DNA of 52,099 nt from NCBI GenBank assembly GCA_913046175.1, contig CAJWSN010000001.1:1-52099 (forward strand), in the 5' to 3' direction. This DNA comes from an uncultured Opitutia bacterium. GTDB taxonomy: Bacteria > Verrucomicrobiota > Verrucomicrobiia > Opitutales > JABJCN01. The first letter of the stretch is position 1. Each line of letters starts with the position of its first letter. Position numbers and translations under genes: made by a program. The notes under the pieces are model-generated. The model saw nothing but the letters and a program-made list of their open reading frames with translations, had not been told where the DNA came from and ran no database searches. Below, one piece after another: positions 1,395-51,405 of this stretch.

Positions 1395-1642
1395 AAGATC
1401 AAGTACACGATTCTTTGGGGTAATTGACAATCAGGATTTAATATAGAAAATATAAAAAGGGAAATTCAACCTCATCTTATGTCCTGTGAAAAAGGGAAAA
1501 ACCCTCTTCAGCCAAGCTTTGATGCGGTAGGACACAGGACCCAGGATGTTGCATGAACTGTGGACAAATGTACAAACAGGTGGGGAGCCGGAAAAACTTT
1601 CTCCTTGTACACATGTTGTTGGCTGTTGCCCACAATCTGTTC

Positions 1643-2005
1643 TCAGGATCCCCGGCTCAGGGTTTCCAGGTATTTCCAGAACGATTTGTGCTGCTCAAGC
1701 ATTTGCTCATTGTTGATGGGTAATTTACACCTGAAAATGAAATCCGTTAGTGTGTTTTTATGAAGTATATAGTGACACCGAAGTTGGGATTTGTCTTCTG
1801 TTGGCTCGAAATACACCCGGTGCTCCTCCGCCCGCAACCTGTAAAAAACCTGTCCGTCACGCTGAAACCGCCCAAGGTCGCCGCCCGGTTTTTGCAGCAT
1901 CGTCTCAGAAAGATCGGAAATTTTTTCAACAAGTGATAATTGCTCGCTCTTGGGCATGGCGTTTAGGGCACGCATGCATTGTTTGCTGAAGGTCACTTGA
2001 AACAT
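1643..2005 (-). CDS. RelE/ParE-fold toxin-like protein with a C-terminal extension (no partner gene)
   Basis: FSKQCMRALNAMPKSEQLSLVEKISDL...GQVFYRLRAEEHRVYFEP follows the RelE/ParE pattern (FSKxAxkdLkkLpk...YRLRvGdYRviY). About 35 extra C-terminal residues follow. Confidence 0.5.
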   Translation of the reverse strand: MFQVTFSKQCMRALNAMPKSEQLSLVEKISDLSETMLQKPGGDLGRFQRDGQVFYRLRAEEHRVYFEPTEDKSQLRCHYILHKNTLTDFIFRCKLPINNEQMLEQHKSFWKYLETLSRGS

Positions 2006-2030
2006 GTTTTAAAAGATTAAAAACCTGAAA

Positions 2031-2966
2031 CTAAACAAGGGAAACCTCAACAGCAAAAGCAGAAGATTCTCCTGGGTTAACCAACTGAAGACCCTTGCGG
2101 TGTACGGGACTGTTTGGAGGACCCATCCAGGGCTCGATACAGTAAAATGGAGCCTCCTCGCTCTCCGTCCAGGTGACCAGTGCCCTTGAAGAGGCAACGG
2201 GCTCTTCATTCTTGAACCGGATGGCAACATTTTCCTCACCACCCTTGGGCCCAAAAGTGCATTCAGCATCCTGCAGATGTGTATGAATCCGATTGACCAG
2301 AACCGGTTCGTCAAAAGAGAAAACACCCGATTTATCAGCAACCTTTTCCCTTTCGAGACTCCCGTCTTCCATGTGTCGCAATGCTCGTTTGGCCGGAATA
2401 TGAATTTCATAACAATCCCGACCCAGCTCATAATGCCATGGCAAACTGAAATAGAAATGATGCCCGGGACACCATGGTATGGGAAAGCTTTCGTTGTTAC
2501 GAAGGCCAAGTTCAACCTGAAAACCAAGCTCGCTGAAAAAATAGCTCACACGGAACTCGTAGTTGTAGGGGTAGGCCTCGCAGGCTGTAACATCTGGCAG
2601 GAGTACGGCCTTGAAACTGCTTTCATTGGCATCCATTAGTTCAAAAGTGCTTGTCCGGGCGAAACCGTGTTGTGGCATGGGTCGGATTAACCCATCTTGG
2701 TCCTCCCAGCAATCAGTGTCTCCATCAGCATGGCATCTTCCGGCAAAAGGGAACAGGATGGGGTTTCCACCCCGCACTTTACCGATATCCCCATAATCTG
2801 CATCCTCTGGCCAATATATGACATCCCGCACAGAACCATCTGCCATTTCTGTGAACCAACTGATCAATCTGCCTCCGGCAACCGGATCTGCAAGGAAGGT
2901 GGATGGACCCTGAACCCACCTGTGGATTTTCCGACCTTGATATTCAAAGGTTTCCATATAAGACAA
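2031..2966 (-). CDS. aldose 1-epimerase family protein (galactose-mutarotase-like)
   Basis: Motifs GGNPILFPFAGR, PQHGFAR and PGHHFYF are present. Length is 311 aa. Confidence 0.8.
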   Translation of the reverse strand: MSYMETFEYQGRKIHRWVQGPSTFLADPVAGGRLISWFTEMADGSVRDVIYWPEDADYGDIGKVRGGNPILFPFAGRCHADGDTDCWEDQDGLIRPMPQHGFARTSTFELMDANESSFKAVLLPDVTACEAYPYNYEFRVSYFFSELGFQVELGLRNNESFPIPWCPGHHFYFSLPWHYELGRDCYEIHIPAKRALRHMEDGSLEREKVADKSGVFSFDEPVLVNRIHTHLQDAECTFGPKGGEENVAIRFKNEEPVASSRALVTWTESEEAPFYCIEPWMGPPNSPVHRKGLQLVNPGESSAFAVEVSLV

Positions 2967-3043
2967 TTAGATATCATGTCTTTGATTGTGTTCAAAGGAA
3001 TTGATGACCCAGACCCCATCGCAGTTTGTTCTGCACAAAGTTG

Positions 3044-4573
3044 ATGAAAAAAAGACAAATAACCCGCAGTACCGATGGTATTTCAATCAGGCTTCTGGTT
3101 GCATGGCTGTTGCTGTCATGTCTGCTCAACGCATCAACCGAGCTTCCGCGTCCCCCGCTCGACCCATCCAAGACAAAAGTTTCCCACCCCAATCGGTCTG
3201 ATCCAGTTCAGGTATATGTTTTGCCCATCCATGGCCTCATCACTTCTGCCCAGCTATACATCGTGCGACGGGGCCTGAAGGCGGCATTGGAGAAGGGGGT
3301 GGATGCCGTGGTCGTGGACATTGACACCCCTGGCGGGGATCTGCAGACCACGCTGGAGTTGATGGAGGTTCTTAACCGCTTCGATGGGGAAACGATGAGT
3401 TTTGTTAGGAAAGAAGCTATTTCCGCCGGGGTTTACATCTCGGTTTCCACCGAGGATATTTATTTTGCTCCCAAGAGCGTGATTGGATCTGCGGCCATTG
3501 TTCAGGGAACCGGTCAGGATGTTCCAGACACCATGAAAATGAAACTTGAGAGCTACCTTATGGCCCGCGTGCGTGCCTATGCCGAGGAGTACCCGCACCG
3601 GGTGCAGGTCGTCCAGGCGATGATGAAGAAGGAGTTTGTGTTGGAGCTTGATGAAAAGATTCTCAAGTCCGAAGGCGAACTCCTCTCCCTAACGGCTAAA
3701 CAGGCCATGGTTGAATATGGCAATCCACCAAGTCCCCTTTTAGGGTCCGGTATCTACGATGACGTGAAATCCATGCTGGATGATCGTTACGGTCCGGGTA
3801 AATACATAATCAAGGAATTTGAAGTGACCTGGTCAGAGGACTTTGCCAAGTTCATGAACAACATTGCCCCCCTCCTTTTGGGTATCGGGTTATTGGGGTT
3901 GTTTATTGAGTTCAAGACACCGGGGTTTGGGGTTTTTGGCGTAACCGGCATTGCCTTACTGCTTATCGTTTTTGCCAGCAATTATATCGCCGGTTTGGCT
4001 GGTCATGAGGAAATACTCTTTTTCCTGTTGGGGGTGGGCCTTATCATGTTGGAAGTGTTTCTCTTTCCTGGAATTATGGTTTTGGCGATCACGGGTGCTT
4101 TTCTTGTACTGGGTTCACTTATTTGGGCAATGGCCGACTACTGGCCGGGCCACATGGGCGATATGCCGCCTGGAGACGGAACACTTCCCTTCCTTGACTT
4201 TGGATTTTCATATTTTCTAAAGCCGGCTGCAGATGTAATGCTGGGTTTCCTCATTGCTGTTGTCGGGGCTGTTTTCATGGTGAAGTTTCTCCCCCGAACC
4301 TTCCTCTGGGATCGGATTGTATTGCAGGAAGCGGTTGGAAACATGGATCCCATGGTCTCCGGCGGCGGCTCGGCAATCAACCAGGATCCGACCCTGCCTG
4401 GTTCCGGGTCCGCTGGTGTGGCCATGACCGACTTGTTTCCAAGTGGTGAAGTTGAAATTGATGGCAGGCGCTATCAGGCGCGAGTCAATGTGGGGACAAT
4501 TCCCCGTGGCTTTGGAATTCGCGTGACCGGACAGGAGGACTTTTGCTTGTTGGTGGAGGAGTCGAATACATGA
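3044..4573 (+). CDS. NfeD-family membrane-bound ClpP-class serine protease
   Basis: It has a signal-like N-terminus and a protease core (VLPIHGLITSA, VVVDIDTPGGDL, EAISAGVYI). A multi-TM block follows, then a C-terminal NfeD OB-like domain (FPSGEVEIDGRRYQARV). Start placed at ATG 3044; the track start at 3026 is a TTG. Confidence 0.85.
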   Translation: MKKRQITRSTDGISIRLLVAWLLLSCLLNASTELPRPPLDPSKTKVSHPNRSDPVQVYVLPIHGLITSAQLYIVRRGLKAALEKGVDAVVVDIDTPGGDLQTTLELMEVLNRFDGETMSFVRKEAISAGVYISVSTEDIYFAPKSVIGSAAIVQGTGQDVPDTMKMKLESYLMARVRAYAEEYPHRVQVVQAMMKKEFVLELDEKILKSEGELLSLTAKQAMVEYGNPPSPLLGSGIYDDVKSMLDDRYGPGKYIIKEFEVTWSEDFAKFMNNIAPLLLGIGLLGLFIEFKTPGFGVFGVTGIALLLIVFASNYIAGLAGHEEILFFLLGVGLIMLEVFLFPGIMVLAITGAFLVLGSLIWAMADYWPGHMGDMPPGDGTLPFLDFGFSYFLKPAADVMLGFLIAVVGAVFMVKFLPRTFLWDRIVLQEAVGNMDPMVSGGGSAINQDPTLPGSGSAGVAMTDLFPSGEVEIDGRRYQARVNVGTIPRGFGIRVTGQEDFCLLVEESNT

Positions 4574-5031
4574 TTTGGGTTATTGGACTTATTCTGCTTG
4601 CCGCAGTGTTGATCAGCTTTGAAATCATCATTCCCGGTGCTGTTTTGGGCTTTCTTGGTCTGCTGGTGTTTTTTTCAGCTTGTGTTGTGGCTGCGGTGCA
4701 GTTCGGACCGGTTCATGGTGTTTTTACCTTTTTGATTGGTGGCATTTTCCTGGGTGTTTTACTTTTTCTGGAATTCAAGTGGCTTCCGCGTACCTCGATG
4801 GGAAAGCAACTCTTTCTCTCCAAGTCTGTTCGGGGCAAGGCCAATGAAGGCCTTTCCGGGGATTTAATTGGCAAAACCGGTGAAGCCCTTACGCCCCTGC
4901 GCCCATCAGGCATGGTGCTGCTTGATGGCATCCAGTACGAAGCAACCTCCAAGGATGGCTTTATTCAAACGGGAGAACGCCTTAAGGTTGTGGGGAAAGA
5001 TAATTTTCGTGTTGTCGTAATAAGAATTTAA
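4570..5031 (+). CDS. short NfeD-family protein (TM helices plus OB domain)
   Basis: [27 protein letters not shown]...[13 protein letters not shown]. The start overlaps the upstream stop as ATGA (4570-4573). Confidence 0.8.
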
Positions 5032-5080
5032 AAATCTAATCAACCAGCCTCTAGACAATCCCCATTCATCAAATCCTCTC

Positions 5081-6091
5081 ATGACACCAATCTACCTGAT
5101 ACTCTTTGGCATTGGGGGCGTTGTGCTCCTGGTCGTCTTCCTGATCATACTTTCGTTTTTTAGCACGTGGCTAAAGGCCTTGCTGGCCAAGGCACATGTA
5201 TCCTTCCCAAATCTTGTGGCAATGCGCTTGCGGGGGGTACCAGCCTCCGCCATTGTTGATGCACGCATTACTGCGGTAAAGGCAGGAATAGAACTTTCGA
5301 CTGACGAACTGGAATCCCATTACCTTGCAGAAGGGAACCTGCACCCCACAGTCCGCGCCATCATTGCTGCCCAAAAGGCCAATATCACCCTCGGGTGGGC
5401 TCAGGCCTGTGCAATTGACCTTGCCACGAAGGGTACCAGCAAGTCTGTGATCGAGGCAGTTCAGACCTCTATCAACCCCAAGGTGATTGATTGTGTCATA
5501 GAAGGACGCGACACCATCGACGGTGTGGCCAAGGACGGTATCCAGGTCAAGGTGCGCGCCAAGGTTACTGTTCGAAGCAACCTTGAGCGATATGTGGGGA
5601 GTGCCCAGGAGGAGACGGTTATTGCCCGGGTCGGGGAAAGCATAGTCTCAACCATAGGCTCCTCCGAGAACTACAAGGTGGTTCTGGAGAACCCGAACTC
5701 GATCACGGATTCAGTTCTGCGCCGTGGTTTGGATGTCGGTACCGCCTTTGAAATCCTTTCCATTGACATCGCCGACGTGGATCTTGGCGAAAACCGGGGG
5801 GCGCAACTGCGGGCCGAACAGGCGGAGTCGGACAAAATTGTGGCTCAGGCCCAGGCGGAAATTCGCCGGGCTGCTGCCGTTGCCGTCGAGCAGGAAATGA
5901 AGGCAAAGGTGGAGGAAATGCAGGCGAAGCTGGTTGAGGCCCAGGCTCTGGTGCCCACAGCCATGGCTGACGCTCTTCGAGCCGGAAACCTGGGGGTCAT
6001 GGATTATATGCGCCTCAAGAATATTCAGGCAGACACGGAAATGCGCGATTCCATTTCCAAGGATCCCGAAGACCTCAATCCCCCGACCTAG
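5081..6091 (+). CDS. floA: flotillin-like protein FloA (UPF0365/YqfA family)
   Basis: N-terminal TM helix followed by [45 protein letters not shown]. It has an Ala/Glu-rich coiled C-terminus. Confidence 0.9.
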
Positions 6092-21433: not shown

Positions 21434-24271
21434 TTGTCAGCATATACTGTTTTAATTGGCTTCACCGCCTTGATGATTGCAGGCTGTGCGGGCTTTTTCA
21501 GCGTCATTGGCATAGCAGATCTTTTTGAGGGCAATTCGCCATGGATCAGGAATGCGGTGATTATAATGGCAGCGAGTCTGGAGGTGGGCAAGTTGGTGGC
21601 GGCCTCCTTTCTTTATCGATACTGGAAGAAAAGCAGCCTGGGACTGCGCACTTATTTATTTTCTGCAGTCCTTCTACTGGTGGCAATCACCTCGTTTGGC
21701 ATCTATGGTTTCCTTTCCAAGGCATTCCGCGATAATGATCTCAAGGTTGAGACCCTGCGCAACAACCTTGCTTCTCCTGAGGGGGAAATCGCATTGCTTG
21801 ATCAACAGGCCAAGGTCTTCCAGGGCGACATCCGGGTACAACAAGACAAGATAGCGGAACATCGGGCCAAGATCGGCGCCTACCAGACAAAGACTTCATC
21901 CCTGGAGGATAGAATCCTGGAGCGTGAGCAGAGAATCCAAACGATGGAGCAGCAAGTGGAGGCCCTGCGGAGGCAGACGCCCGATGCGGTGCCTGCGAAT
22001 GAGAAACATATCGCGGATGAGCGCGTGCGCCTGAAGGCGCTCATCGCACAGGTTCACCTACAAATTGATGATCGTGAGGATGCCAAGCTGCAGCTTGTTC
22101 AGGCATCAAACAGTGAAATTGCCAACTACCAGAAGCAGGCCCTCCTTGCCAATGAGCGGATGGTGGTGCTGGACAATGCAGTCAAAATCCTGACCGACAA
22201 GGGGCCTGGTGGGTTTCTCAAGAATGACTATGTAAAAAAAGGGGAGGAGCTGCGCCTCCAGCAAAAGCCTGAACGGGACGCCCTTCGTGCACATGTGGCC
22301 TCGCTCAATGAAAATATAAAGATTTCTCGCGACCGCCTTCAACAAAACCTTGCCCGCATCGATGTGCGCATCAAGGAACAGGAAGCTGACATCACTGCGC
22401 ACAATGCATCCATTGGCAGGCTTGCTGACAAGGCCAAGACCCTGGATGTCGAAGCCCAGCAGCAGCATGAGGCAAAAATCACCGTGGTGCTGGGAGAAAT
22501 GACCGGCGTGGAAAATGAAATTCGCGGCATCAAGGGTGAAGTGCAGACAATTGCCGCCGAGGTGCGCAAGGAGGAGGACCTCATCCTGAAGGCAGAGTAT
22601 GCCATTCAGGATAATGAGGCGGGAACCCTCAAGGCCGAAACCGGCAAGCGGAAGCCGGAGGCAGAGATTTCAGCAATCCTCACGCAGGTGGATCACACGG
22701 AGATCGGCGCCTTCAAGTTTATAGCGCGCGCATTTTTTCAAGACTCCATTGAGGCTGCGCGTGCGACTGGCGACAAGACTTTGGTGTGGCGTGCTGAAAC
22801 AAAGGCCATGGACAGCGTTGTCAAGTGGTTCATCCTTGTGATTGTCGTGGTTTTCGACCCGCTGGCGGTGACCCTGGTTGTTGCCTTCAACGTGGCGTTG
22901 ATCAAGGATGAAGTTAATAAAAAGGAGTTTTGGAAATTTGCTCTAAAGCCTGCCATGGCAGTGTTGATTCTCGGGCTGATACTTGGTGGTGGGTTTATGG
23001 TTCTGCAAAAAGGCGGCCTACAATGGGGTTCGTCAGAAGTGGACTCCAGTGTTGCAGAAGCCGGACAAAAGGAAAACCCCGACGCCACGCCGCTGGAGAA
23101 ATTTCGTCAGGCACTGTTCTCCCCGCAGAAAAAAGATGCCGGTTCCTCGATCCTGGCCGATGCACCACTTTATCAGCGGATTCCAGCGGATTCCGTATTT
23201 GTCATGACTTTTAGAAGTTTCGACAATGTCCTCGACAGCGCGGAATTCGTCGACCTGCTTAAACGTGGCCTGACCAGTTCCATTGCACCAAACCTTGCCC
23301 GGGAGCTCAAATTAATTTGTTCCGACCCGGCAGGATATGGCCTTGCCCGAGCACGCCCAGCGTTTTTCTTTTCCAAGTTTCCGCCGGGGGATGCCCCCAA
23401 GGGACCTGGTGCGATTGCCTCCTACCCGGCATCGGGTGTTTTGTTCAGTTTGGAGCGTCCTGGTTCCCTGGAGGTGCAGCTTGCCCATACACTCCTGGGA
23501 ACCATCGGTGGTCGCTGGAGGGTGGAAATTGACAACGGCTTCAAGGCCTTCTACCATCGCGACCGTCGATTGGCTGTGGCTTTTGATCAATCGGCCCTGG
23601 CCATTTACGAGGATCCGCTGGGCCAGCTTGGAGACGCAGGGCTTCGGGATGAAATCAAGAATCTTTTTTCCGGCAACGCACCCACCCTGGCTTCCAGCAA
23701 GACTTTCGTCCGACACATGCAGGCCCAATACGATCTGGGGCTCTGGTTTGACGGGACCGCCTTTTTCCGGGAGATGAATCGTGATGCCGCCGGTTCGCCT
23801 CTTTACGGCCGGCTTCGCAAGTTCCTGGATTTCCAGAGCACGTATGAAGTCACGTTTGACAAAGGTGTGGCAATGGTGGACGGCAGGTATTATTATCGTG
23901 AAAAGCGTTTGCTCGATGCAGGCATCTTGTCCCTTCGCTCTGCCTTGCAGGATATTCGACCTGGCGATGCCAACACCGCCCAGGATCAACTGATGCTCCT
24001 TTGCGTGGAGAAGTTGGATTTCACCAGTTTTTGCACCATACTCGAGAAGCCTGAGCCCTCAGAAAACAAATTTGTTAAGCTTCTTGGAGCCGATGAGGCG
24101 ATGGACAACGTTGTATTCTCCCGCAATGTGGACAGCCCATATGAAGGACGCTTTTCCCTGACCCTTGAATTGAAGGAAAAGAATCTCCACAGCCTGAGTG
24201 AAATTTCCGAACTTATTCAAAAATCCATGCAGCCGGAAGTCTCCAGTATCGAGACCAAGACCTCCAATTAA
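21434..24271 (+). CDS. hypothetical polytopic membrane protein: 3 TM, ~370-aa coiled coil, 2 TM, ~400-aa unknown domain
   Basis: TTG start preceded by GAGGAAAGGA. TM helices are VLIGFTALMIAGCAGFFSVIGIA, AVIIMAASLEVGKLVAASFLY, TYLFSAVLLLVAITSFGIYGFL, WFILVIVVVFDPLAVTLVVAFNVALI and AMAVLILGLILGGGFMVL. A long heptad-rich region lies between TM3 and TM4. No family recognised. Confidence 0.8.
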   Translation: MSAYTVLIGFTALMIAGCAGFFSVIGIADLFEGNSPWIRNAVIIMAASLEVGKLVAASFLYRYWKKSSLGLRTYLFSAVLLLVAITSFGIYGFLSKAFRDNDLKVETLRNNLASPEGEIALLDQQAKVFQGDIRVQQDKIAEHRAKIGAYQTKTSSLEDRILEREQRIQTMEQQVEALRRQTPDAVPANEKHIADERVRLKALIAQVHLQIDDREDAKLQLVQASNSEIANYQKQALLANERMVVLDNAVKILTDKGPGGFLKNDYVKKGEELRLQQKPERDALRAHVASLNENIKISRDRLQQNLARIDVRIKEQEADITAHNASIGRLADKAKTLDVEAQQQHEAKITVVLGEMTGVENEIRGIKGEVQTIAAEVRKEEDLILKAEYAIQDNEAGTLKAETGKRKPEAEISAILTQVDHTEIGAFKFIARAFFQDSIEAARATGDKTLVWRAETKAMDSVVKWFILVIVVVFDPLAVTLVVAFNVALIKDEVNKKEFWKFALKPAMAVLILGLILGGGFMVLQKGGLQWGSSEVDSSVAEAGQKENPDATPLEKFRQALFSPQKKDAGSSILADAPLYQRIPADSVFVMTFRSFDNVLDSAEFVDLLKRGLTSSIAPNLARELKLICSDPAGYGLARARPAFFFSKFPPGDAPKGPGAIASYPASGVLFSLERPGSLEVQLAHTLLGTIGGRWRVEIDNGFKAFYHRDRRLAVAFDQSALAIYEDPLGQLGDAGLRDEIKNLFSGNAPTLASSKTFVRHMQAQYDLGLWFDGTAFFREMNRDAAGSPLYGRLRKFLDFQSTYEVTFDKGVAMVDGRYYYREKRLLDAGILSLRSALQDIRPGDANTAQDQLMLLCVEKLDFTSFCTILEKPEPSENKFVKLLGADEAMDNVVFSRNVDSPYEGRFSLTLELKEKNLHSLSEISELIQKSMQPEVSSIETKTSN

Positions 24272-24274
24272 TAC

Positions 24275-25879
24275 ATGTTTCGCGAACATCCACCATTAAT
24301 TTTGCTCTGGGTCCTGCCTGTTATTGGTGCAGGGTGTGCGTCTCAGAAGACACAGTCCGTTGAGCATCCACCAACTTCCATGATTGCGCCCGAACCGATG
24401 GAAGGGGAGGCAACCATAACGATTGCCAGCCTGGAGACAGCGCCAGGCGGGCTCGAAACTGAATTCCGTGTCCATGGCGGAGAGGATGACGCCTGGTTGA
24501 CCCTCGGCTTGCCTGGTGTAGCCGGATCGTCTGGTGCGCCCAAGGGGGAAACGACCCGCGGGGACTTGCCTGTGTTTCCAGTTGACAATGGGGCTGTTCG
24601 GGATGTGCCGGTGTTTTCCGGGGATTCCGAGCTTGGGGTGGTTCAGGCAGGTTCCCATCTGCAAAAAACCAGTCAGGCCATGGACCTGCCGGTATATCCC
24701 ATGGAGGAGCCGGAAGATCTCGCAGAACCGGATTTGGCGGGTCCGGCCGGGGAGGGCGGGGTTCCATCAAATACACGTCCAGCCACCCCGTCTCCTGCTG
24801 ATCCTACCCCGGAGAAACACGAGAAACCTCGACCACTTCCCGAAAATGTTCGCACCGCCTTCTTGAAAACGAATGCAGAGATGAACGACACCCCGGAGGA
24901 GCCCGGGACGAGAAAACCTTTCGCATGGCCTCGACCAGGATCAGCTGTTGAAACACCGGAGAATCTGCAGGCCCCGACAGACGATGTGGCGGCATGGCTC
25001 AAGGGCCATGCATTGCCCAAGCCCGTGGATTCTTTGGGGCTGCTGGATGAATTTGATGGCCCGGCAGACGCATTTGCCTGGCTCCTTCAACGCAGCCAAT
25101 CGAACAAGGCGCCAGACTCCCTGGCCGAAACCCGCAAGCAGATGGCCGTCCTCGATTGGCTGGCCCGTCTACAGGAAAATAAAAGTAATGAGCCGTGGGG
25201 TCATGGACGCAACCGTGACTTGGACGAGGTGCTTGCATGGTTTCGGAAAGGCGGCCTCGGCCAGGATGACAATGCCCCCGGACAGTCAGCCATGACTGCT
25301 GCGACCGGGCAACTTTTCCAGTGGCTGGGCCGATCCGCGCAAAAGAATGATGGTAATCACCCGCCTACAGGCGACGTGGTTGTTGGGGCAGATCCCTTGT
25401 CCCGGTGGCTTTCCCAAGGCCAAAAGGCTGGCCCTCCATCTTTGGTCAACCATCAACCAGATCAGGCCCTGAAATTTCCCCTGCAGTTATTCTCGGTCGG
25501 AAAACCTGTGGCGGTGAATTCAACGGGAAGGCCGCCAACAAACCCTACTGCGTCGAAATTATGGCTTCAGTCTCGCCTCGTAAAGAAGGCGACTCCTGAT
25601 ACCACCAGCCAAACCGGGACAACTATTCCCCAAGTGGATTATTCAGCCGCTTTCTCGTGGTTGCGTCGTGCGTCAGACAATTGGCAGCAACAATCGGGTG
25701 GTATGACAGCCCGGCGAATCCCGAGTCGAGTGAAAGCCAGGCCACGACCCAGCCTTACGGATGAGGAAAACCTGACTGAGGCCATGGGTTGGCTCCGAAG
25801 AGGCACTGGCCAGCGCAGACATTCCCTGCATGCAGCAACGGGAACGGATGCCTCCATAGAGGCGAAGCAGACTCCGTAG
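24275..25879 (+). CDS. hypothetical Pro-rich lipoprotein with a reiterated W-L motif
   Basis: Its ATG lies 3 nt after the upstream stop. The signal and lipobox-like sequence is LLWVLPVIGAG-C21. The composition is low complexity and Pro/Gly/Asp-rich. Ten x-x-W-L/F-x-[RKQ] motifs are present. Confidence 0.75.
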   Translation: MFREHPPLILLWVLPVIGAGCASQKTQSVEHPPTSMIAPEPMEGEATITIASLETAPGGLETEFRVHGGEDDAWLTLGLPGVAGSSGAPKGETTRGDLPVFPVDNGAVRDVPVFSGDSELGVVQAGSHLQKTSQAMDLPVYPMEEPEDLAEPDLAGPAGEGGVPSNTRPATPSPADPTPEKHEKPRPLPENVRTAFLKTNAEMNDTPEEPGTRKPFAWPRPGSAVETPENLQAPTDDVAAWLKGHALPKPVDSLGLLDEFDGPADAFAWLLQRSQSNKAPDSLAETRKQMAVLDWLARLQENKSNEPWGHGRNRDLDEVLAWFRKGGLGQDDNAPGQSAMTAATGQLFQWLGRSAQKNDGNHPPTGDVVVGADPLSRWLSQGQKAGPPSLVNHQPDQALKFPLQLFSVGKPVAVNSTGRPPTNPTASKLWLQSRLVKKATPDTTSQTGTTIPQVDYSAAFSWLRRASDNWQQQSGGMTARRIPSRVKARPRPSLTDEENLTEAMGWLRRGTGQRRHSLHAATGTDASIEAKQTP

Positions 25880-30960: not shown

Positions 30961-31839
30961 ATGAGCATGAAAATCGGCTGGATTGGGACTGGCGTCATGG
31001 GCGCACCCATGGCGGGGCACCTGCAGGCAGCCGGCCATGAGCTTTTTGTCTACAACCGCACATCAGCCAAGGCACAGGCACTCGTTGAAGCCGGGGCCAC
31101 CTTTTGCGGTTCACCGCGTGAGGTGGCTGAGAACACGGAGGTTATCTTCCTTATTGTGGGGTTTCCAGCGGATGTCGAAGCCACGGTACTGGGCAAAGAC
31201 GGTGTCTTGGCCGGCGCGTCGACAGGATCCGTTGTCGTGGACATGACCACTTCCGAGCCCTCCCTCGCCAAGCGTATCCATGAGGCCGCGAAGGAAAAAG
31301 GAGTTGATGCCCTGGATGCCCCTGTTTCGGGGGGGGATATTGGGGCCCGCAACGCGACGCTCGCCATAATGGTCGGTGGGGCCCTGGAGGTTTTTGACCG
31401 GATTCACCCACTCTTTGAAATCCTCGGTGACAACATTGCCCATATGGGTCCGGCCGGTGCCGGCCAGCACACCAAGATGAGCAATCAGGTCCTCATTGCC
31501 GGCACCATGATCGGCGTTGTCGAGTCCTTGATCTACGCCCATGGGGCCGGGCTTGACCGCGACGAGGTCATTGCCGTTATTGGCAGTGGTGCGGCCGGGT
31601 CCTGGTCCATCAACAATCTGGGCCCCCGGATTGTGAGGGAGGACTTTGACCCTGGTTTCTACATCAAGCATTTCGTCAAGGATATGGGCATAGCCCTTGC
31701 CGAGGCAAAGCACATGAACATAGCCCTCCCGGGGCTCACCCTTGTCCATCAGTTCTATCAGGCTGCCATTGCCGAGGGGCTGGAGAATCTTGGTACCCAG
31801 GGCCTTTACAAGGTTATTGAAAAAATTCAGCCGGGATGA
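30961..31839 (+). CDS. NAD(P)-dependent beta-hydroxyacid dehydrogenase (3-hydroxyisobutyrate / 2-hydroxy-3-oxopropionate reductase family)
   Basis: KIGWIGTGVMGAPMAGHL...LDAPVSGG...AGAGQHTKMSNQ. Start placed at ATG 30961. Confidence 0.88.
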   Translation: MSMKIGWIGTGVMGAPMAGHLQAAGHELFVYNRTSAKAQALVEAGATFCGSPREVAENTEVIFLIVGFPADVEATVLGKDGVLAGASTGSVVVDMTTSEPSLAKRIHEAAKEKGVDALDAPVSGGDIGARNATLAIMVGGALEVFDRIHPLFEILGDNIAHMGPAGAGQHTKMSNQVLIAGTMIGVVESLIYAHGAGLDRDEVIAVIGSGAAGSWSINNLGPRIVREDFDPGFYIKHFVKDMGIALAEAKHMNIALPGLTLVHQFYQAAIAEGLENLGTQGLYKVIEKIQPG

Positions 31840-32120
31840 GTGACGAAACCAAATCCTCCATCCCCGGTGCGGGCTCCAGCGTCCTCTGGGGCTTTGCCGG
31901 CCTCTTGCTGTTTCCTGTACCCCTGGTCGGCGTGACCTGTGGAATCGTGGCCATCGTCAAGGCACAGAAGGCGAAGGTTCTTCTACAGGGAAGGAAGGAT
32001 GAATACCTTGGCGAAGCGACAGCAAGGCTGGGATTCCGCCTTGGCGTTACTGCTGTGGTCTTTGCCCACCTATGCTACCTGGTGGTCGCTGTCTACATGC
32101 GGCAGGGAATGCCTTCATGA
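31836..32120 (+). CDS. small membrane protein (DUF4190-like)
   Basis: ATGA overlap with the upstream stop. Two TM helices are present (VLWGFAGLLLFPVPLVGVTCGIVAIV and LGVTAVVFAHLCYLVVAVY). Confidence 0.55.
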   Translation: MSDETKSSIPGAGSSVLWGFAGLLLFPVPLVGVTCGIVAIVKAQKAKVLLQGRKDEYLGEATARLGFRLGVTAVVFAHLCYLVVAVYMRQGMPS

Positions 32121-32270: not shown

Positions 32271-33599
32271 TCAGGTCGTACCCCGGTTTCTTGGCGCCCC
32301 GGTTTTGCGGGACGCTGGCACGGCCTTGGAAGGGGAGCTTTCCTTGCGGATCATGGGCTCCATTTTACGTCCAGGTGCAGAGACCTGCTGGATCCATTTC
32401 TGTAATTGCGCCCGTTTTTCCCCCTCGGCCGAGGGTAGTTGTTCCTCGAGCAGTTTCATGGTCAACAGGTTAATCTGTTCCCTATTTTCAATAACCAGCT
32501 TCTGGTACTCCGACTGCACCAGCCCTGCCAGAACCATGGCGTTTCCGGGCTTGCGTGCGATGGCGGTGATGATCAGCTTGGGCTGCGGCCCATCTTCCAC
32601 GTCGACGGTATATTTAATGACGGAATCGAGTGGAACGGTGCGCCCCTTTTTTGCCTCGGCCTGGGCAAGTGCCCGGTGCCTGGGGTTGCCTTTGATTTGT
32701 TTAAAGGTACGTTTCTTTAATTCATCGCTTTTTAGGCCCTCCATGTGATGTCTGGTCATCTTCGTGATGAATTGAGCCTGTTGCTTCAGGCTCAACTTGT
32801 TGAGTGGGGCAGGCGGGACCAGCCGAAAGGACGCACTGGACTGGAACAAGGTCGCTTTGTGCTTTTTCTCTTCGATCGTTTCTTTTGGCAGTTGAGGCAC
32901 AAGGGCCAGCCCCAGCAGGAGCAGGATTGATGAAATCACAATGCCTAACTTCCCAAGGGAGGTCTTGCGACTAATGATCCCCGTCACAAGGGCAGCCATT
33001 TCCACGACGAGCAAAAGAAGTATAGCCAGGCCCATGGACAGGTTGGCCTTGATCCCGAAAAGGAGGAGAAACAGGATCACGACCAATGGAATGACGATGG
33101 GGGCAATGGAGATACGAAAGCTGAACCGGCCAAGCCTGAGGAGTTTATTGGAAGGTCTGTCTCTGGTGATGCCTGAACGATTCCCGGCCCCTGCGGAATA
33201 ATCGGTTTCTTCTTCCAGGGAGGCGCATATTTTTTGCAGGACCTTCCCTGTGTCCGGGTCGTGGAACTCGACATGCTGAATGCCTGCGAGCTGGTATCGG
33301 AAACGGTCGGTTAGTTCGCACGGCTCCAGGTACACGGGCAAAATTTTCTTCCGGGTCTCGGAGGCAAGCATCACCTCCTTGTGGACATTATCGGAGGCGA
33401 GGGAGTTCCTGCTGACGAGCAAAACCAGCACCCGGCATTCCCTGATCGCATGGACGATCTGCTCGGACCACAGACCCGCCGCCTCGATGTTGCCCTCGTC
33501 CATCCATACCGAGTATCCCTGCTCCTGCAGCAGTTTGACGACCAAGCCGGCCTGTTCCTGGTCCTTGCGGGCGTAACTAATGAATATTTCCCCGGACAT
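32271..33599 (-). CDS. TIR-domain protein with 3 TM helices and a Wzz/PCP-like extracytoplasmic domain
   Basis: The N-terminus is a TIR_2-type pattern: IFISYARKD...VWMDEGNIEAAGLW...VLVLLVSRNSLASDNVHKEVMLA. TM helices are at about aa 163-182, 187-209 and 216-235. The C-terminal ~190 aa resemble a polysaccharide co-polymerase N-domain (ATLFQSSASFRLV...KLIITAIARKPGNAMVLAGLVQSEYQKLV). Confidence 0.8.
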   Translation of the reverse strand: MSGEIFISYARKDQEQAGLVVKLLQEQGYSVWMDEGNIEAAGLWSEQIVHAIRECRVLVLLVSRNSLASDNVHKEVMLASETRKKILPVYLEPCELTDRFRYQLAGIQHVEFHDPDTGKVLQKICASLEEETDYSAGAGNRSGITRDRPSNKLLRLGRFSFRISIAPIVIPLVVILFLLLFGIKANLSMGLAILLLLVVEMAALVTGIISRKTSLGKLGIVISSILLLLGLALVPQLPKETIEEKKHKATLFQSSASFRLVPPAPLNKLSLKQQAQFITKMTRHHMEGLKSDELKKRTFKQIKGNPRHRALAQAEAKKGRTVPLDSVIKYTVDVEDGPQPKLIITAIARKPGNAMVLAGLVQSEYQKLVIENREQINLLTMKLLEEQLPSAEGEKRAQLQKWIQQVSAPGRKMEPMIRKESSPSKAVPASRKTGAPRNRGTT

Positions 33600-33668: not shown

Positions 33669-35993
33669 TCAGCGAAACAATTGCAGCTCAAACCCCAGAA
33701 TTTCAAGGCGCAGCAGATCCTGGAGTTCCAGGCCCGGCCCGGGATAGAGAAGGAATTCGCGGCGGCGTTTGCGGAAACGCATTTCATCATCCTTCCATCC
33801 TTGGAGAATTTCACGGGCGGGTCGTCCGTCCCGGATGTCGGCCAGGATTTTTGGGTGGCCGAGAAGGGTGTTCACCTTCTTCAGGTCAAATTTACGGGGG
33901 TAAAGCTTGTGCAGCACAACAGCGAGCTGGATGCCGGTTTCCACGGCCTTGAAGGCCTTGCGGTCGGTGAGAACCAGGTTGACGCCTCCACACACCTGGC
34001 CACTGAACTTGCTGGCGTCAGGGGTGAAGCGTATGGGCAGAAAGGTGATGCCCGGCAGCTTTTTTGCATTCATTACCCCGGCCAGGAGCAGGTCGTCGAT
34101 GTAGGGTGCGCCGAGAACCTCGAAAGGCGTGTCCGTGCCACGACCGACCGAAAGACTGCAGAATTCAAGAAGGCCCACCCCCGGATACAGGATGGCCTGG
34201 GTAAGGTTGCGCATGTTGGGCGAGGGGTTGCGCCAGGGCAGGCCGGTGGCATCCTGGAGCTTGTCGCGTCTCCAGCCCTGGACGGGGATGATGACCAGTT
34301 CAACGTTGAACCCTTTTTCCTTGTTGAACATGCGCGCCAGTTCACCGGCTGTCATGCCGTGCCGGACGGGGATGTCATGGTAGCGGACAAAACTGGTGGT
34401 GTCCTTAAGCAGCGGGCCGTTGACTTCGTGGCCACCCACAGGGTTCACGCGGTCGAGGACAATAAACTTCAGTCCGGCAGCAGCAGCAGCCTCCATGCAG
34501 TTGCCCATGGTGGCCATGTAGGTGTAAAAGCGGGTTCCGATATCCTGGATATCAAAGACCAGGGCATCCAGGCCAGCCAGTTGTGCAGGGCGGGGTTTCT
34601 TGGTTTTTCCATAGAGGCTGTAGACGGGGAGTCCGGTCCCTTTGTCGATGCTGTCATTAACCCGGTCGTCCTCAACACCACGGATTCCGTGCTCGGGGCT
34701 AAAGAGGGCACGAAGCTGTACGCGCCGGTTTTGGTGGAGCAGGTCGATGGTGGAAAGCCGCCGGGCGTCGATGCCCGTGTGGTTTGTGACAAGGCCGACG
34801 CGAAGCCCCTTCAGGGACTCGAAGTCCTGCCGGAGCAGGACATCTATGCCGTTGAGCACCTGTGGTCGATGGTCTGCCACCGCCTCGGCGGCAAGGGTGC
34901 CGAGCCTGCGACGCAGCGGGACAACGCCTCCGCCCCCGTCAGGATGATTGCGGTTGGTCATGAGAATCCAGAAGCTGAGCGAGGTTGGGTCAATCCACAG
35001 GGAGGGACCGGTAAAGCCGGTGTGTCCGAATGAACCGATTGGGAAAAGGCTGCCTCTTGGACTGCTGTAGCCAGTGTGGATGTCCCAGCCCACCCCGCGT
35101 TTGTTTGTCATCCCGGGTGGGGTCTGGACGGTCGTCATGATGCGAACGCTCTCCGGTGTAAGGATGCGTGTGCCTTCAAGTACGCCGTTGCCGAGGATCA
35201 TTCGTGCAAAGCGTGCCAGGTTGGTGACCGTGGAGAAAACGCCGGCATGCCCGGCAACCCCACCCATTCTCCGGGCCGTGGGGTCATGGACTGTCCCCCG
35301 CAGCATCTGCCCGTCCACCTTTGTCGTGGGTGCGATGCGGGCCCGGAGGGCGGGTGCGGGTCGAAAACCCGTTTCCCGCATGCCCAGCGGGGTAAAGATG
35401 TTTGCCTTTGCAAACTCGTCCAGGGGCTTGCCGGAAACACGGTGAACAATTTCCCCAAGAAGAATAAAGTTGATGTCACTGTAGGTAAAGCGGCCCCCGG
35501 GAGCCTGCTGGAGCTTTTCATTGCAAGCCAGCCTGATGGCGGCTTCCACTCCCTGCCATTGTCCACGAAGGGATATGCCGGGACGCAGGCCGGAGGTGTG
35601 GGTGAGGAGGTGGTGCAATGTTACTTTTTCCCGCCCGTTGCCGGTAAAGGCTGGAATGTGGGTGGCCACCGGTTCCTGCAGGTTGATCTTGCCGTGTTCG
35701 GCAAGGATCAGGATTGAAGGTGTGGTGGCCACGACCTTGGTGAGCGATGCAATGTCGTAGACAGTGTCCTGGGTGGTGCTTTCCCGCCGCGGTATCGTGG
35801 CACGGTACCCGTAGGATTTGTTCCAAGCCTGTCCCTCGCGTTCAATCCATACAATGCCCCCGGGCAGCCTTTTTTCCCGAATGGCATTTGCAACGGAGGA
35901 ATCGATTGTGTGGAGAACATTCGGGTCGAATCTGGCCGACGCGGTGTCAACTGCCAGAAGGAGTACAAAAAGCAGGGTCAGGAAAGGTTGCAT
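33669..35993 (-). CDS. fusion protein: beta-lactamase-fold serine hydrolase (AmiE/PBP4*-like) plus DUF1343/NamZ-like exo-N-acetylmuramidase
   Basis: Signal peptide MQPFLTLLFVLLLAVDTASA. The SxxK motif is IASLTK, with a later HTGFTG. The C-terminal half carries DUF1343 motifs (GLVTNHTG, LFSPEHG, DIQDIGTRFYTY, VLDRVNP). Start placed at ATG 35993. Confidence 0.85.
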   Translation of the reverse strand: MQPFLTLLFVLLLAVDTASARFDPNVLHTIDSSVANAIREKRLPGGIVWIEREGQAWNKSYGYRATIPRRESTTQDTVYDIASLTKVVATTPSILILAEHGKINLQEPVATHIPAFTGNGREKVTLHHLLTHTSGLRPGISLRGQWQGVEAAIRLACNEKLQQAPGGRFTYSDINFILLGEIVHRVSGKPLDEFAKANIFTPLGMRETGFRPAPALRARIAPTTKVDGQMLRGTVHDPTARRMGGVAGHAGVFSTVTNLARFARMILGNGVLEGTRILTPESVRIMTTVQTPPGMTNKRGVGWDIHTGYSSPRGSLFPIGSFGHTGFTGPSLWIDPTSLSFWILMTNRNHPDGGGGVVPLRRRLGTLAAEAVADHRPQVLNGIDVLLRQDFESLKGLRVGLVTNHTGIDARRLSTIDLLHQNRRVQLRALFSPEHGIRGVEDDRVNDSIDKGTGLPVYSLYGKTKKPRPAQLAGLDALVFDIQDIGTRFYTYMATMGNCMEAAAAAGLKFIVLDRVNPVGGHEVNGPLLKDTTSFVRYHDIPVRHGMTAGELARMFNKEKGFNVELVIIPVQGWRRDKLQDATGLPWRNPSPNMRNLTQAILYPGVGLLEFCSLSVGRGTDTPFEVLGAPYIDDLLLAGVMNAKKLPGITFLPIRFTPDASKFSGQVCGGVNLVLTDRKAFKAVETGIQLAVVLHKLYPRKFDLKKVNTLLGHPKILADIRDGRPAREILQGWKDDEMRFRKRRREFLLYPGPGLELQDLLRLEILGFELQLFR

Positions 35994-36099
35994 GTTGCCC
36001 AAAATAGAAGCTTGGAAATGAAAAAAAGCAAAAAGCAAAATGGTGGGCTTGAAATTTTTCTTTTTTTGAGATGCTCTCCCCTAATTTTGTTTCTTGCCC

Positions 36100-49369: not shown

Positions 49370-50278
49370 TTATTTGGATATAGGGATGTAGCCGTTATCC
49401 ACCACGACCTTCTGCCCGGCCTCCGAGAGACACCAATCAATGTAAGCCTTGGTGGCGCCTTTGGGATCACCGAGGGTGTACATAAAGAGTGGGCGAGCGA
49501 TGGGATATTTGCCGCTTTGGGCATTCTCCAGATTTGGCTCATAGGCGTCATTGCCTGTTTCGGTCGCAATCCTGAGCATTTTTACTTCTTCAGTTGCATA
49601 ACCCATCCCACTGTAGCCAATGGCACTGGGCGTTTTGCCCACCAATTCCACAACGTCCTTGGACCCGTGCAGGTCGCGCGAGCCCAACTTGAATTCCTTC
49701 CCCTTGGACACCACGGTTTCCTTGAAGTAAACATAAGTACCGGAGTTGGACTGGCGACTGACGCGGATAATCTCATCGTTGCCATCGGAGGCCTTGACGC
49801 CCAATTGTGTCCACTTCGTGATGGTGCCGCCCTCTCCAAAAATCTGGCCCAGTTGAGCGATGGTAATCTTTTCCAGGGGGTTGTCCTTGTGTACATATAC
49901 GGCGAGCGCATCCAGTCCCATGGTAAACAGTTTGGGCTCTGCATCATTTTGATTTTTGGCCTTGGTGATCTCCTTGTCCTTCATGGCCCGGCTGCAGTTG
50001 GCGATGTGGGTCGTCCCATTAATGAGGGCTGCAATGCCGGTACCCGAACCTCCACCGGAAACCTCGACCGATACACCGGGGTCGACTGTTGCATATGCCT
50101 CCGCCCAGGCTTGGGCGAGGTTGACCATGGTGTCAGAGCCGGCATTTTGAATAAGAGTCTTGCTGGCACCACCGGCGCCGGCACCACCACCGCCGCCACA
50201 GGACGGGAAGAGAAAGGCCGCAGCGGTAGCGAAGCCCAGGGTTGTTAAAACTTGGCACAGAATTTTCTTTTCCTTCAT
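49370..50278 (-). CDS. pstS: phosphate-binding lipoprotein PstS
   Basis: Signal and lipobox (AAFLFPSC) followed by a Gly-rich linker. PBP motifs are GSDTMVNL, GGGSGTGI and SRQSNSGTY. Confidence 0.9.
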   Translation of the reverse strand: MKEKKILCQVLTTLGFATAAAFLFPSCGGGGGAGAGGASKTLIQNAGSDTMVNLAQAWAEAYATVDPGVSVEVSGGGSGTGIAALINGTTHIANCSRAMKDKEITKAKNQNDAEPKLFTMGLDALAVYVHKDNPLEKITIAQLGQIFGEGGTITKWTQLGVKASDGNDEIIRVSRQSNSGTYVYFKETVVSKGKEFKLGSRDLHGSKDVVELVGKTPSAIGYSGMGYATEEVKMLRIATETGNDAYEPNLENAQSGKYPIARPLFMYTLGDPKGATKAYIDWCLSEAGQKVVVDNGYIPISK

Positions 50279-51405
50279 TCCTTGTTGTTTTCTTTGTTGT
50301 TTTGTTCGCCAAGGAAGGCTTCGGCGAGATCTTGGATTTGTTTTTTCAGATAGTTGAAAGTATTCTCGTAGGCCTCCTGTATTTCCTCCTCGGAACCCTC
50401 AAACTCAGAGGGATCCTTCACCTTCCATTCCACGCCAATGGTGCGGGTCGGTGGTGCGGGAAAAGCGCGCCTGGCAGCTTTGCGCAGGGCAATGACTATA
50501 TGGTAATGCTCCAGGTTGGGGATGTGGTCGATGGACTTTGTGATCTTGTTCGAGATGTTGATGTCCTTATCGAGTAGAAAGCGGGCGGTGCGCTCATCCA
50601 CCTTCTGGGGCTCAACGCCGGCACTGCTGAAAATGAAATTCTGGTATTCCAGGGAATTGCCGACTGCCTCGGCAATCTGGGTGGTGCAGGAATTGGTCTT
50701 GTCGACGAAGATGACACGAAAGACCTCTGTGCCCAGGTGCTTCATGTATTTGCCGGTGCACATGTAGAGGGCCTCCTCGCAAATGTTGGCCGATTGGTTG
50801 GCCGCGCGTTCGTAACGACGCACCACCGTCATCAGGGAGGTCATGGCCTCCATGGGAAGCTTGTTGTGCTCCCGCTGCAGGAGAAGGTCCTCATTAATCT
50901 CGTCACGCATCTGTTGGGCATTCTCATCCTCCTTGATGGTGGCCCAGGCCAACTCAGCATCCTCCTCAAGAAACGCCTGCGCGGCCTGCTCCAGCATTTG
51001 AGCGGCCACATCACTGAGACCCTGTAGCTTTTGGGAGTCGAAATCAATCTCGAGGGAATTCAGGATCAGCACCTCCCGCGCAATACTTTCCGCATAATCA
51101 CCGATGCGTTCAAGTTCCTGGTTGATCTTGATCGTTGCGTAGACAAAGCGAAGGGAACCAGCAACCGGTTGCTGCCGCAGGAGGAACTCCAGGCAAAGCC
51201 GGTCCACTTCCTGTTCCAGGTCGTCAATCCGCTGGTCGCGAAGAATAATCGAATAGGCGAGGGTGCCATTTTGCTCCATGAGGGCGGTGCGACTGTCCAC
51301 AAGCGCCTGCTTAACTTGTTGCGCCATCTGGCGCACCTTTCGACGTATGCGCTTGATGTCCTTTTGCAGACTGGCGTCCAGATGAGGGGTCGGGTTCGTT
51401 TCCAT
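50275..51405 (-). CDS. phoU: PhoU fused to a catalytically degenerate ArsC/LMW-PTP-like domain
   Basis: aa 1-225 hold two PhoU repeats (INQELERIGDYAESIA; VVRRYERAANQSANICEE). aa ~228-376 align to LMW-PTP/ArsC (VIFVDKTNSCTTQIAEAV...SSAGVEP...EWKVKDPSEFEGSEEE), with the CX5R Cys and Arg replaced by Asp and Thr. ATGA overlap with pstS. Confidence 0.85.
   Translation of the reverse strand: METNPTPHLDASLQKDIKRIRRKVRQMAQQVKQALVDSRTALMEQNGTLAYSIILRDQRIDDLEQEVDRLCLEFLLRQQPVAGSLRFVYATIKINQELERIGDYAESIAREVLILNSLEIDFDSQKLQGLSDVAAQMLEQAAQAFLEEDAELAWATIKEDENAQQMRDEINEDLLLQREHNKLPMEAMTSLMTVVRRYERAANQSANICEEALYMCTGKYMKHLGTEVFRVIFVDKTNSCTTQIAEAVGNSLEYQNFIFSSAGVEPQKVDERTARFLLDKDINISNKITKSIDHIPNLEHYHIVIALRKAARRAFPAPPTRTIGVEWKVKDPSEFEGSEEEIQEAYENTFNYLKKQIQDLAEAFLGEQNNKENNKE

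Follow-up and report, generated by a model that had tools for sequence, protein, structure and literature searches.

A predicted inner-membrane protein of an uncultured Opitutia bacterium joins a SARM1-like TIR domain to a truncated polysaccharide co-polymerase domain

Introduction

To our knowledge, the bacterial TIR enzymes that have been characterised all act in conflict systems, and the trigger of each characterised bacterial TIR system is cytoplasmic, whether a nucleic acid, a second messenger or a phage protein. All studied TIR NADases that we know of (SARM1, AbTir, ThsB and SPARTA) moreover need an ordered clustering of their TIR domains for activity. Here, we describe a gene on the minus strand (32271..33599) of a 52,099-nucleotide stretch of DNA from an uncultured Opitutia bacterium (contig CAJWSN010000001.1, positions 1 to 52,099, hereafter the window). 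Its product is predicted to carry a TIR domain inside the cell and a domain derived from polysaccharide co-polymerases (PCPs) outside the cytoplasm.

Experimental background comes from Escherichia coli, where the anti-phage systems TIR-I to TIR-IX comprise single- and two-gene systems (PMC11350192). Orphan E. coli TIR proteins, some of which contain transmembrane (TM) segments or TPR repeats, can make cells resistant to phages, an effect for which the TIR active site is required, and the triggers found in this survey were phage proteins expressed inside the cell, such as a tail tube, a tail fibre and SSB (PMC11350192). An initial annotation of the window, made from its letters alone, had proposed that the gene described here encodes a one-component sensor-effector that faces the envelope. 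We followed up this proposal by profile, structure and neighbourhood comparisons.

Results

A TIR domain, three membrane helices and a co-polymerase stub in one predicted protein

The gene is contained in the list of open reading frames (ORFs) of the window with an ATG start and encodes 442 amino acids followed by a stop codon. As judged from sequence comparison and structure prediction, its product is an inner-membrane protein that begins with a cytoplasmic, SARM1-like TIR domain and continues with three TM helices, the third of which bears a periplasmic stub derived from ExoP/Wzc-type co-polymerases. The truncated PCP-like ectodomain is followed by a disordered tail.

The TIR domain resembles NAD+-cleaving TIRs and retains their catalytic glutamate

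The TIR domain occupies residues 1-135 (33195..33599, minus strand). Its earlier assignment to the TIR_2 type is borne out by Pfam, in which TIR_2 (PF13676) matches residues 5-117 with an E-value of 4.1e-24 and 85.8 bits against a cut-off of 28, while the Pfam families TIR and ThsB_TIR match more weakly. The PADLOC models ThsB, TIR-SAVED and Aga_TIR and the NCBIfam models gave weak matches through the TIR part alone, far below the NCBIfam equivalog cut-offs (for the Thoeris model, 35.7 bits against a cut-off of 220). Among solved proteins, the SARM1 NADase TIRs are nearest in sequence, followed by AbTir and SPARTA TIR-APAZ. In the full-length AlphaFold2 model the TIR fold is confident, with a predicted local distance difference test score (pLDDT) of ~90. 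A Foldseek search with this TIR model again returned SARM1 at the top (E=2.5e-7, probability 1.0, target-normalised TM-score 0.69-0.77). SPARTA, AbTir and plant TIRs likewise reached a probability of 1.0, and the TIRs of MyD88 and Hydra TRR-2 are also among the structures that resemble the model.

The initial annotation had placed Glu75 at the catalytic position of NADases. This is what the alignment with human SARM1 yields, in which VHKE75 of the query falls on VHKE642 with the catalytic glutamate of SARM1 (SARM1 residue numbers are counted from the alignment); the codon of this putative catalytic residue lies at 33375..33377 (minus strand). Two BB-loop positions also have their equivalents, as G42 corresponds to SARM1 G601 and W44 to F603. 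Glu75 shows no variation in alignments of 8, 28 and 48 relatives, the last of which (A3) stems from a scan for family members with one genome per species. The invariant columns of A3, the query included, are S8, Y9, G28, D34, W44, S69, N71, E75, E81, P88, Y102, L104, G106, I107 and Q108. From these comparisons and the model we infer that the TIR domain is enzymatically competent and of the type that would cleave NAD+ via Glu75.

Three membrane helices place the TIR domain inside and the C-terminus outside

Hydropathy delineates three segments at residues ~163-181, 188-208 and 217-235, and the full-length AlphaFold2 model contains helices at 152-181, 187-208 and 214-232, in agreement with the three TM helices first noted at about residues 163-235. 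TM1 (~163-181; 33057..33113) would run from inside to outside, TM2 (~187-208; 32976..33041), which includes the conserved Glu200, from outside to inside, and TM3 (~214-235; 32895..32960) again from inside to outside, all encoded on the minus strand. Seven Lys/Arg residues precede TM1 and three lie in the loop between TM2 and TM3, and TM3 aligns with TM1 of the co-polymerases (P0025). Because the charges follow the positive-inside pattern and TM3 is the equivalent of the first PCP helix, the TIR domain is predicted to be cytoplasmic and the last ~205 residues extracytoplasmic, which is the orientation that had been proposed from the basic loops.

Within the subgroup of TIR proteins with three TM helices (the query and its relatives P0002 and P0003, see below), the membrane-embedded glutamate E200 and a G-I-I-S-R-K-T..G loop between TM2 and TM3 are invariant. 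This conservation suggests that the membrane domain has a function beyond anchoring. When the TM region was compared with SLATT, DUF4190 and similar families, no Pfam match was obtained at E-values up to 1, except for a non-significant one to DUF2207_C.

The ectodomain derives from ExoP-like co-polymerases

The extracytoplasmic PCP-like domain (residues 250-395; 32415..32852, minus strand) consists of an alpha/beta base and the start of a long helix. In a database search, residues 210-368 of the query were matched by residues 16-176 of four proteins of ~750 amino acids that bear the JGI name ExoP. The ectodomain shares 34% identity with one such ExoP-like PCP-2a protein (P0025; pairwise E=5e-18, database E=6e-12), and the matching region corresponds to TM1 of ExoP/Wzc-type co-polymerases together with that part of their periplasmic domain which is nearest to the membrane. 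The ExoP-like relatives are true members of the PCP-2 class, with P-loop domains of the bacterial tyrosine kinase (BY-kinase) type and a Tyr-rich tail. The gene of one of them (P0025) immediately follows a Poly_export (Wza-like) gene, and Wzy_C belongs to the same locus. A search of the PDB with a profile of the PCP relatives returned the BY-kinases CapA/B, Etk and VpsO through their kinase domains only, and no periplasmic PCP domain was matched. Pfam Wzz (PF02706) does not match the query even at E-values up to 1; as the full-length relatives lack this match too, the PCP subfamily is divergent. The positions that mark this subfamily, i.e. SSxSFxLxPP and an invariant His, Gly and Leu, are nonetheless kept in the query.

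Apart from its first helix, the long helical region of the relatives (~250 residues) is absent from the query, as are their kinase and Tyr-rich tail. No hydrophobic segment follows residue 235 and the alignment ends before the second TM helix of the relatives, which confirms the earlier remark that this helix is missing. The remainder of the protein (residues 396-442; 32274..32414, minus strand) comprises a short helix and a basic, Pro/Ser-rich disordered tail with a pLDDT below 50 from residue 421 and, again, no hydrophobic segment. An AlphaFold2 model of residues 210-442 reached a pLDDT of 71 overall and of 80-91 in the core. Besides the TM helix and the disordered tail, it shows one strand, a bundle of helices, a beta-hairpin and additional helices. 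The top PDB matches of the modelled ectodomain in Foldseek, although weak, are all co-polymerases (WzzB, KpsE and FepE). Thus, the resemblance to Wzz-type periplasmic domains that had been noticed at first is a homology that is solid at the level of sequence and only suggestive at the level of the predicted fold.

The fusion of TIR and co-polymerase domains is confined to one lineage

Among ~15 billion proteins, the exact TIR-PCP fusion was found in one other protein (P0001), a 99%-identical twin from an independent assembly that has the same architecture and the same neighbouring gene, and the ORF is intact in both assemblies. An exhaustive HMMER search with residues 210-442 against 1.84 billion representatives gave nine matches and no further TIR fusion, and a scan of metagenome contigs with the subgroup of three TM helices recovered P0003 and no further TIR-PCP fusion. 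All fusion searches together yielded only the twin, a fragment of the twin and P0003.

The nearest TIR relatives (P0002, P0003 and P0004) are 55-60% identical over the TIR domain and the TM helices and have unlike C-termini. P0002 (locus L010, 233-1519) is a 60% identical sister in which the PCP stub is replaced by a periplasmic domain of FliL, the flagellar stator-associated protein (42 bits against a profile cut-off of 24.6). P0003 has 255 residues, ends right after TM3 and occurs in several marine assemblies, and P0004 contains additional TM helices at its C-terminal side. The PCP-like module is also encountered without a kinase elsewhere, namely behind a DUF4190-like N-terminus with two TM helices and with a full periplasmic domain (P0035), and inside lipoproteins with MORN repeats on either side of it (P0037, P0039 and P0041).

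A full-text literature search retrieved no description of proteins that combine a TIR with a co-polymerase domain, nor of TIR-TM-TolB/TPR proteins. Of the earlier suspicion that the architecture had gone undescribed, the part that concerns the TIR-PCP fusion holds, as the fusion looks undescribed; the part that concerns the general plan does not. On sequence evidence, the plan of a TIR followed by a TM segment and an extracytoplasmic domain is common in the databases and not a unique design.

Comparison of the window with the contig of the twin (L001) revealed three differences in 4336 nucleotides. All three are nonsynonymous (T380A, R411H and S421G) and fall within 126 nucleotides (32337-32462) that encode the C-terminal helix and tail region, where R411H and S421G affect the tail part (residues 396-442) and T380A the PCP-like part immediately before it. 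By a rough estimate, such a clustering of three differences would arise by chance with a probability of ~0.0025. Hypermutation by a diversity-generating retroelement was considered for these differences and rejected, since the window contains no template repeat.

A family of TIR-TM-periplasmic proteins has expanded in marine Verrucomicrobiota

The family scan recovered 75 loci that encode the TIR subtype of the query with 36-59% TIR identity, mostly in metagenome-assembled genomes (MAGs) of marine Verrucomicrobiota. Single MAGs contain several of them, with at least seven loci each in SP274 and NIOZ-UU28, at least six in SI036_bin22 and at least five in SB9160_S9_bin_9. Members from Verrucomicrobiota typically consist of an N-terminal TIR, one hydrophobic segment at residues ~150-196 and a C-terminal region of roughly 480-600 residues. 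A Pfam scan of 48 members detected TIR_2 in all of them, TPR in about half and TolB-like PD40 propellers in a quarter. The query shares the invariant TIR residues and the succession of membrane segment and ectodomain with this family, and differs by three TM helices instead of the usual one and by a PCP-like domain in place of TPR or PD40. By these sequence features, the family is a paralogous expansion in marine Verrucomicrobiota, of which the query is a lineage-specific member.

Clustering of the flanking genes showed that the commonest neighbour of a family gene is another paralog (19 loci, in tandem), as exemplified by two TIR-TM-TPR/PD40 genes at 967-3153 and 3153-5417 of locus L029. Other recurrent neighbours are DUF1501, PSD1/PSCyt, sulfatase, BamB-like and RuvB genes and a menaquinone-biosynthesis gene. 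The initial annotation had suggested a look for defence islands around the homologues; these recurrent neighbours are ordinary Verrucomicrobiota genes, with no ThsA-like or other defence partner among them. Polysaccharide-export loci, which the initial annotation had named as a setting that would imply a structural role, harbour only PCP relatives and no TIR homologues.

The ectodomain of the paralog P0007, which is of the TolB-like/TPR type, recurs with ~32% identity over ~94% of its length on winged helix-turn-helix (wHTH) proteins of the Trans_reg_C type. As the same ectodomain is thus common to TIR paralogs and to ToxR/CadC-type wHTH proteins, it would be an exchangeable sensor module, and this supports a view of the family as putative transmembrane sensors with exchangeable outputs.

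The gene occupies a variable slot in a housekeeping neighbourhood

The window represents core chromosome, with dnaN, NfeD/FloA, ftsK, dnaJ, several GFO/IDH oxidoreductases, an rRNA methylase and a fructosamine kinase as well as carB, purU, secDF, recJ and pstSCAB-phoU. The TIR gene is surrounded by a namZ fusion gene, carB, a dehydrogenase gene and a 94-residue membrane ORF. In the nearest relatives, the order secDF-yajC-purU-carB|namZ is kept and the content of the slot behind namZ varies. L087 has two DUF7133 genes between namZ and a conserved 95-residue membrane ORF plus dehydrogenase, and in L088-L091 the slot is taken by a photolyase and GSHPx. Direct comparison with L087 shows that the flanks are orthologous (85% identity for carB, 71% for namZ, 82% for the small ORF and 82% for the dehydrogenase). 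Given this differing slot between conserved flanks, the TIR gene is lineage-specific cargo in a variable slot, an arrangement typical of accessory genes. A recent horizontal insertion was considered and rejected on account of the native composition of the gene, with a GC content at third codon positions (GC3) of 0.686 that equals that of namZ, and of the lack of clear insertion scars or signs of mobile elements.

The initial annotation had seen no ThsA-like, cyclase or Argonaute partner nearby, and the window annotation agrees, with none of ThsA-like, CD-NTase, pyrimidine cyclase, SAVED or Argonaute genes being present; PADLOC searches of ten flanking proteins gave the same picture. Neither a second TIR protein nor another PCP is encoded in the 52-kb window, and it contains no Wza, Wzy, Wzx or glycosyltransferase genes. 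A SLOG, Macro, SIR2 or STING-like receptor is likewise absent from the window and from the recurrent neighbours of the family.

Several further features of the surroundings were recorded. A short hairpin lies between convergent genes around the TIR gene, and a scan for promoters and terminators gave counts that do not exceed those of shuffled sequence. An imperfect inverted repeat of 22 nucleotides (86% complementary; 31981-32002 and 33787-33808) brackets the TIR gene; its arms are purine-rich and located inside the conserved flanking genes, and it is probably due to chance. The ORF upstream by 69 nucleotides on the same strand (33669-36038, minus strand) encodes a secreted beta-lactamase-family domain fused to the exo-MurNAc-ase NamZ of peptidoglycan recycling. 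This fusion is kept in thousands of proteins, and all those with an organism name belong to Verrucomicrobiota. On the other side, the 94-residue ORF (31836-32120, plus strand) has two TM helices, a start that overlaps the stop of the dehydrogenase gene and no Pfam match; with 82% identity to its counterpart in L087 it is, by conservation, a real gene.

Two large adjacent ORFs of 945 and 534 residues (21434-25879, plus strand) have no Pfam match, and the first has a weak MukB/JetC-like coiled-coil match (E=6e-4), which is also the sole PADLOC match among the ten flanking proteins. At the end of the pstSCAB operon, an ORF (50275-51405, minus strand) joins PhoU to a low-molecular-weight phosphotyrosine phosphatase (LMWPc), an unusual pairing. 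Phosphatases of the latter kind are normally partners of BY-kinase co-polymerases.

Discussion

A possible route from the envelope to NAD+ cleavage

We tentatively favour a reading of the protein as an envelope-controlled TIR NADase, a possibility that draws on sequence, models and analogy to studied TIR enzymes. The TIR domain would cleave NAD+ using Glu75, and the PCP stub would control its clustering from the periplasm. Periplasmic PCP domains oligomerise into rings and dock to the Wzy/Wza apparatus for export, and the stub would therefore most plausibly act by setting the oligomeric state. FliL, which takes the place of the stub in P0002, is a ring-forming periplasmic module too. The stub might self-associate or co-assemble with the co-polymerase of the cell itself, and the TM helices might pass on changes of the envelope, for instance when the exopolysaccharide machinery is damaged or attacked by a phage. 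The output would consist of NAD+ depletion or of an NAD-derived signal and lead to growth arrest or abortive infection.

The one-component sensor-effector of the initial annotation stands in part. It fits the anatomy, i.e. the paralog family, the ectodomain shared with wHTH regulators and the invariant glutamate, whereas its anti-phage framing finds no backing in the gene context; a defence role is plausible all the same.

Several observations weigh against an envelope-controlled NADase. The aromatic residue that precedes the catalytic glutamate in SARM1 (W638) is Asn71 in the query, and Asn is invariant throughout the family, so that activity or products may differ from those of SARM1. The PCP domain is incomplete and gives way to a disordered tail, and its Foldseek matches to co-polymerases are weak, with no E-value below 4.6e-3 and with TM-scores between 0.2 and 0.34. 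The TIR-PCP fusion is known from one lineage only, and the ectodomain may be dispensable, given that P0003 is composed of the TIR and the TM helices alone. As to the context, none of the ten flanking proteins scanned gave a significant PADLOC match and no defence genes are near, nor do the clustered flanking genes of the family include a ThsA-like or other conserved defence partner.

Alternative roles

The protein might instead be a physiological transmembrane receptor without an immune role, and its family a verrucomicrobial counterpart of ToxR-like or receptor-kinase one-component systems, in which the TIR would convert a periplasmic cue (nutrients, polysaccharide or the state of the envelope) into an NAD-derived second messenger for the control of normal physiology. 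We regard this as somewhat unlikely, and yet it agrees with the many paralogs per genome and their tandem arrays, with housekeeping neighbourhoods free of defence islands, with an ectodomain module that also serves wHTH transcription regulators, and with a native composition in which GC3 matches that of namZ. It sits less well with the absence of a SLOG, Macro, SIR2 or STING-like receptor for such a messenger from the window and the recurrent neighbours, with a variable slot and a rapid turnover of ectodomains that are more reminiscent of an accessory or immune repertoire, and with the conflict role of the characterised bacterial TIR enzymes known to us. On the whole, the slot that varies, the ectodomains that turn over and the precedent set by other bacterial TIRs speak for a role in conflict, and the housekeeping surroundings and the sensor modules in common with regulators for signalling. 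An extension of the former to the whole family is rather unlikely: marine Verrucomicrobiota would own a repertoire of type-II membrane receptors for outside-in TIR signalling, whose exchangeable periplasmic modules (TPR/TolB-like, FliL or co-polymerase stub) would register events at the envelope and activate an NAD+-cleaving TIR in the cytoplasm. The PCP and FliL variants would be guards or decoys inside the exopolysaccharide-export machine and the flagellar stator that deplete NAD+ upon attack. Both machines are common entry points of phages.

A simpler possibility, which we deem unlikely, is that the functional unit is limited to the TIR and the three-helix membrane domain and that the PCP stub is a by-product of recombination, at most a passive spacer or anchor with no part in sensing. 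P0003, whose chain stops behind TM3 and which is kept in several marine assemblies, would represent just such a unit, and the strongly conserved TM2-loop-TM3 part with its membrane-embedded glutamate, the truncation and disordered tail of the PCP part, the singleton lineage of the fusion and the confinement of all three nonsynonymous twin differences to the C-terminal part point the same way. An inert remnant would hardly be expected, however, to keep the PCP hallmark positions at only 34% identity, to be predicted to fold with a core pLDDT of 80-91 or to persist as an intact ORF in two independent assemblies, and FliL at the same position of the sister P0002 suggests that ectodomains are selected rather than accidental.

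It is more improbable still that the TIR is a non-catalytic interaction module that recruits proteins to the membrane, as in animal TLR/MyD88 signalling. TIR domains can be scaffolds in general, Asn71 replaces the aromatic residue, and the fold also resembles the TIRs of MyD88 and Hydra TRR-2. Against this, the catalytic glutamate and the equivalents of the BB-loop Gly and aromatic residue are conserved across 48 relatives, the best matches in both sequence and structure are the enzymatic TIRs of SARM1, SPARTA and AbTir, and the window encodes no second TIR protein. Least credible of all would be a true co-polymerase that controls polysaccharide chain length or export and carries the TIR as an accessory. 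Although the ectodomain is homologous to PCP-2a proteins and finds Wzz, FepE and KpsE among its fold matches, the query lacks the second TM helix, the long helical hairpin and the kinase as well as a Pfam Wzz match, the 52-kb window contains no Wza, Wzy, Wzx, glycosyltransferase or other PCP gene, and the TIR homologues reside outside export loci.

The fusion itself is a one-lineage curiosity; of greater interest is the pattern of the family, with a putative sensor outside and a TIR inside that is predicted to be catalytic. This wider family is large and apparently unstudied, and it offers a defined set of proteins for the outside-in idea, with dozens of genomes, at least five to seven paralogs in each, exchangeable ectodomains and an invariant catalytic glutamate. 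The fusion with the PCP stub would be a case in which a portion of a co-polymerase has found a second use as a periplasmic module of its own, and is thereby informative on co-polymerase oligomerisation. Should the stub be inert, the finding would shrink to one more orphan membrane-anchored TIR.

Comparison with known systems

The query shares the TIR_2 fold, the catalytic glutamate (E75, equivalent to E642) and the BB-loop Gly and aromatic residue with the NADases SARM1 and AbTir. SARM1 combines its TIR with ARM and SAM domains and AbTir with a coiled coil, whereas the TIR of the query is N-terminal, tethered to the membrane by three TM helices and followed by an extracytoplasmic domain, and has Asn71 in place of Trp. 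With Thoeris ThsB and the TIR effectors of CBASS, Pycsar and SPARTA it has weak profile matches via the TIR alone in common. It is not a member of these systems, because their ThsA, cyclase, SAVED and Argonaute partners are absent from the window; they also sense cytoplasmic cues, whereas the additional domain of the query faces the periplasm. No PCP-like or periplasmic sensor is mentioned for the E. coli systems TIR-I to TIR-IX, which are not close homologues of the family described here (PMC11350192).

On the side of the envelope proteins, TM3 and residues 250-395 are homologous to TM1 and the membrane-proximal part of PCP-2a proteins (Wzc/ExoP). Unlike these, the query is cut after the first helix, has no TM2, BY-kinase or Tyr-rich tail and is not encoded in an export locus. 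The query follows the plan of ToxR/CadC-like regulators, in which an output domain at the cytoplasmic N-terminus is connected through a TM segment to a sensor in the periplasm, with the difference that its output is a TIR rather than a DNA-binding domain and that it bears a PCP stub and not a TolB-like/TPR domain.

Finally, the family resembles the animal Toll-like and IL-1 receptors in that a TM segment links an outer sensor to a cytoplasmic TIR, and in forming expanded paralogous families. In Toll-like receptors the TIR is C-terminal, not N-terminal as in the query, and the ectodomains are unrelated; the query in turn keeps the catalytic glutamate typical of NADases. There is no evidence for a common descent of the two architectures. 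If the guard or decoy reading were true, the family would include the first bacterial TIR system to sense infection from outside the cytoplasm, and thus a functional analogue of Toll-like receptors. If the envelope-controlled NADase that we tentatively favour is true, bacteria would couple envelope events directly to NAD+ chemistry, with the topology of the animal Toll-like receptors.

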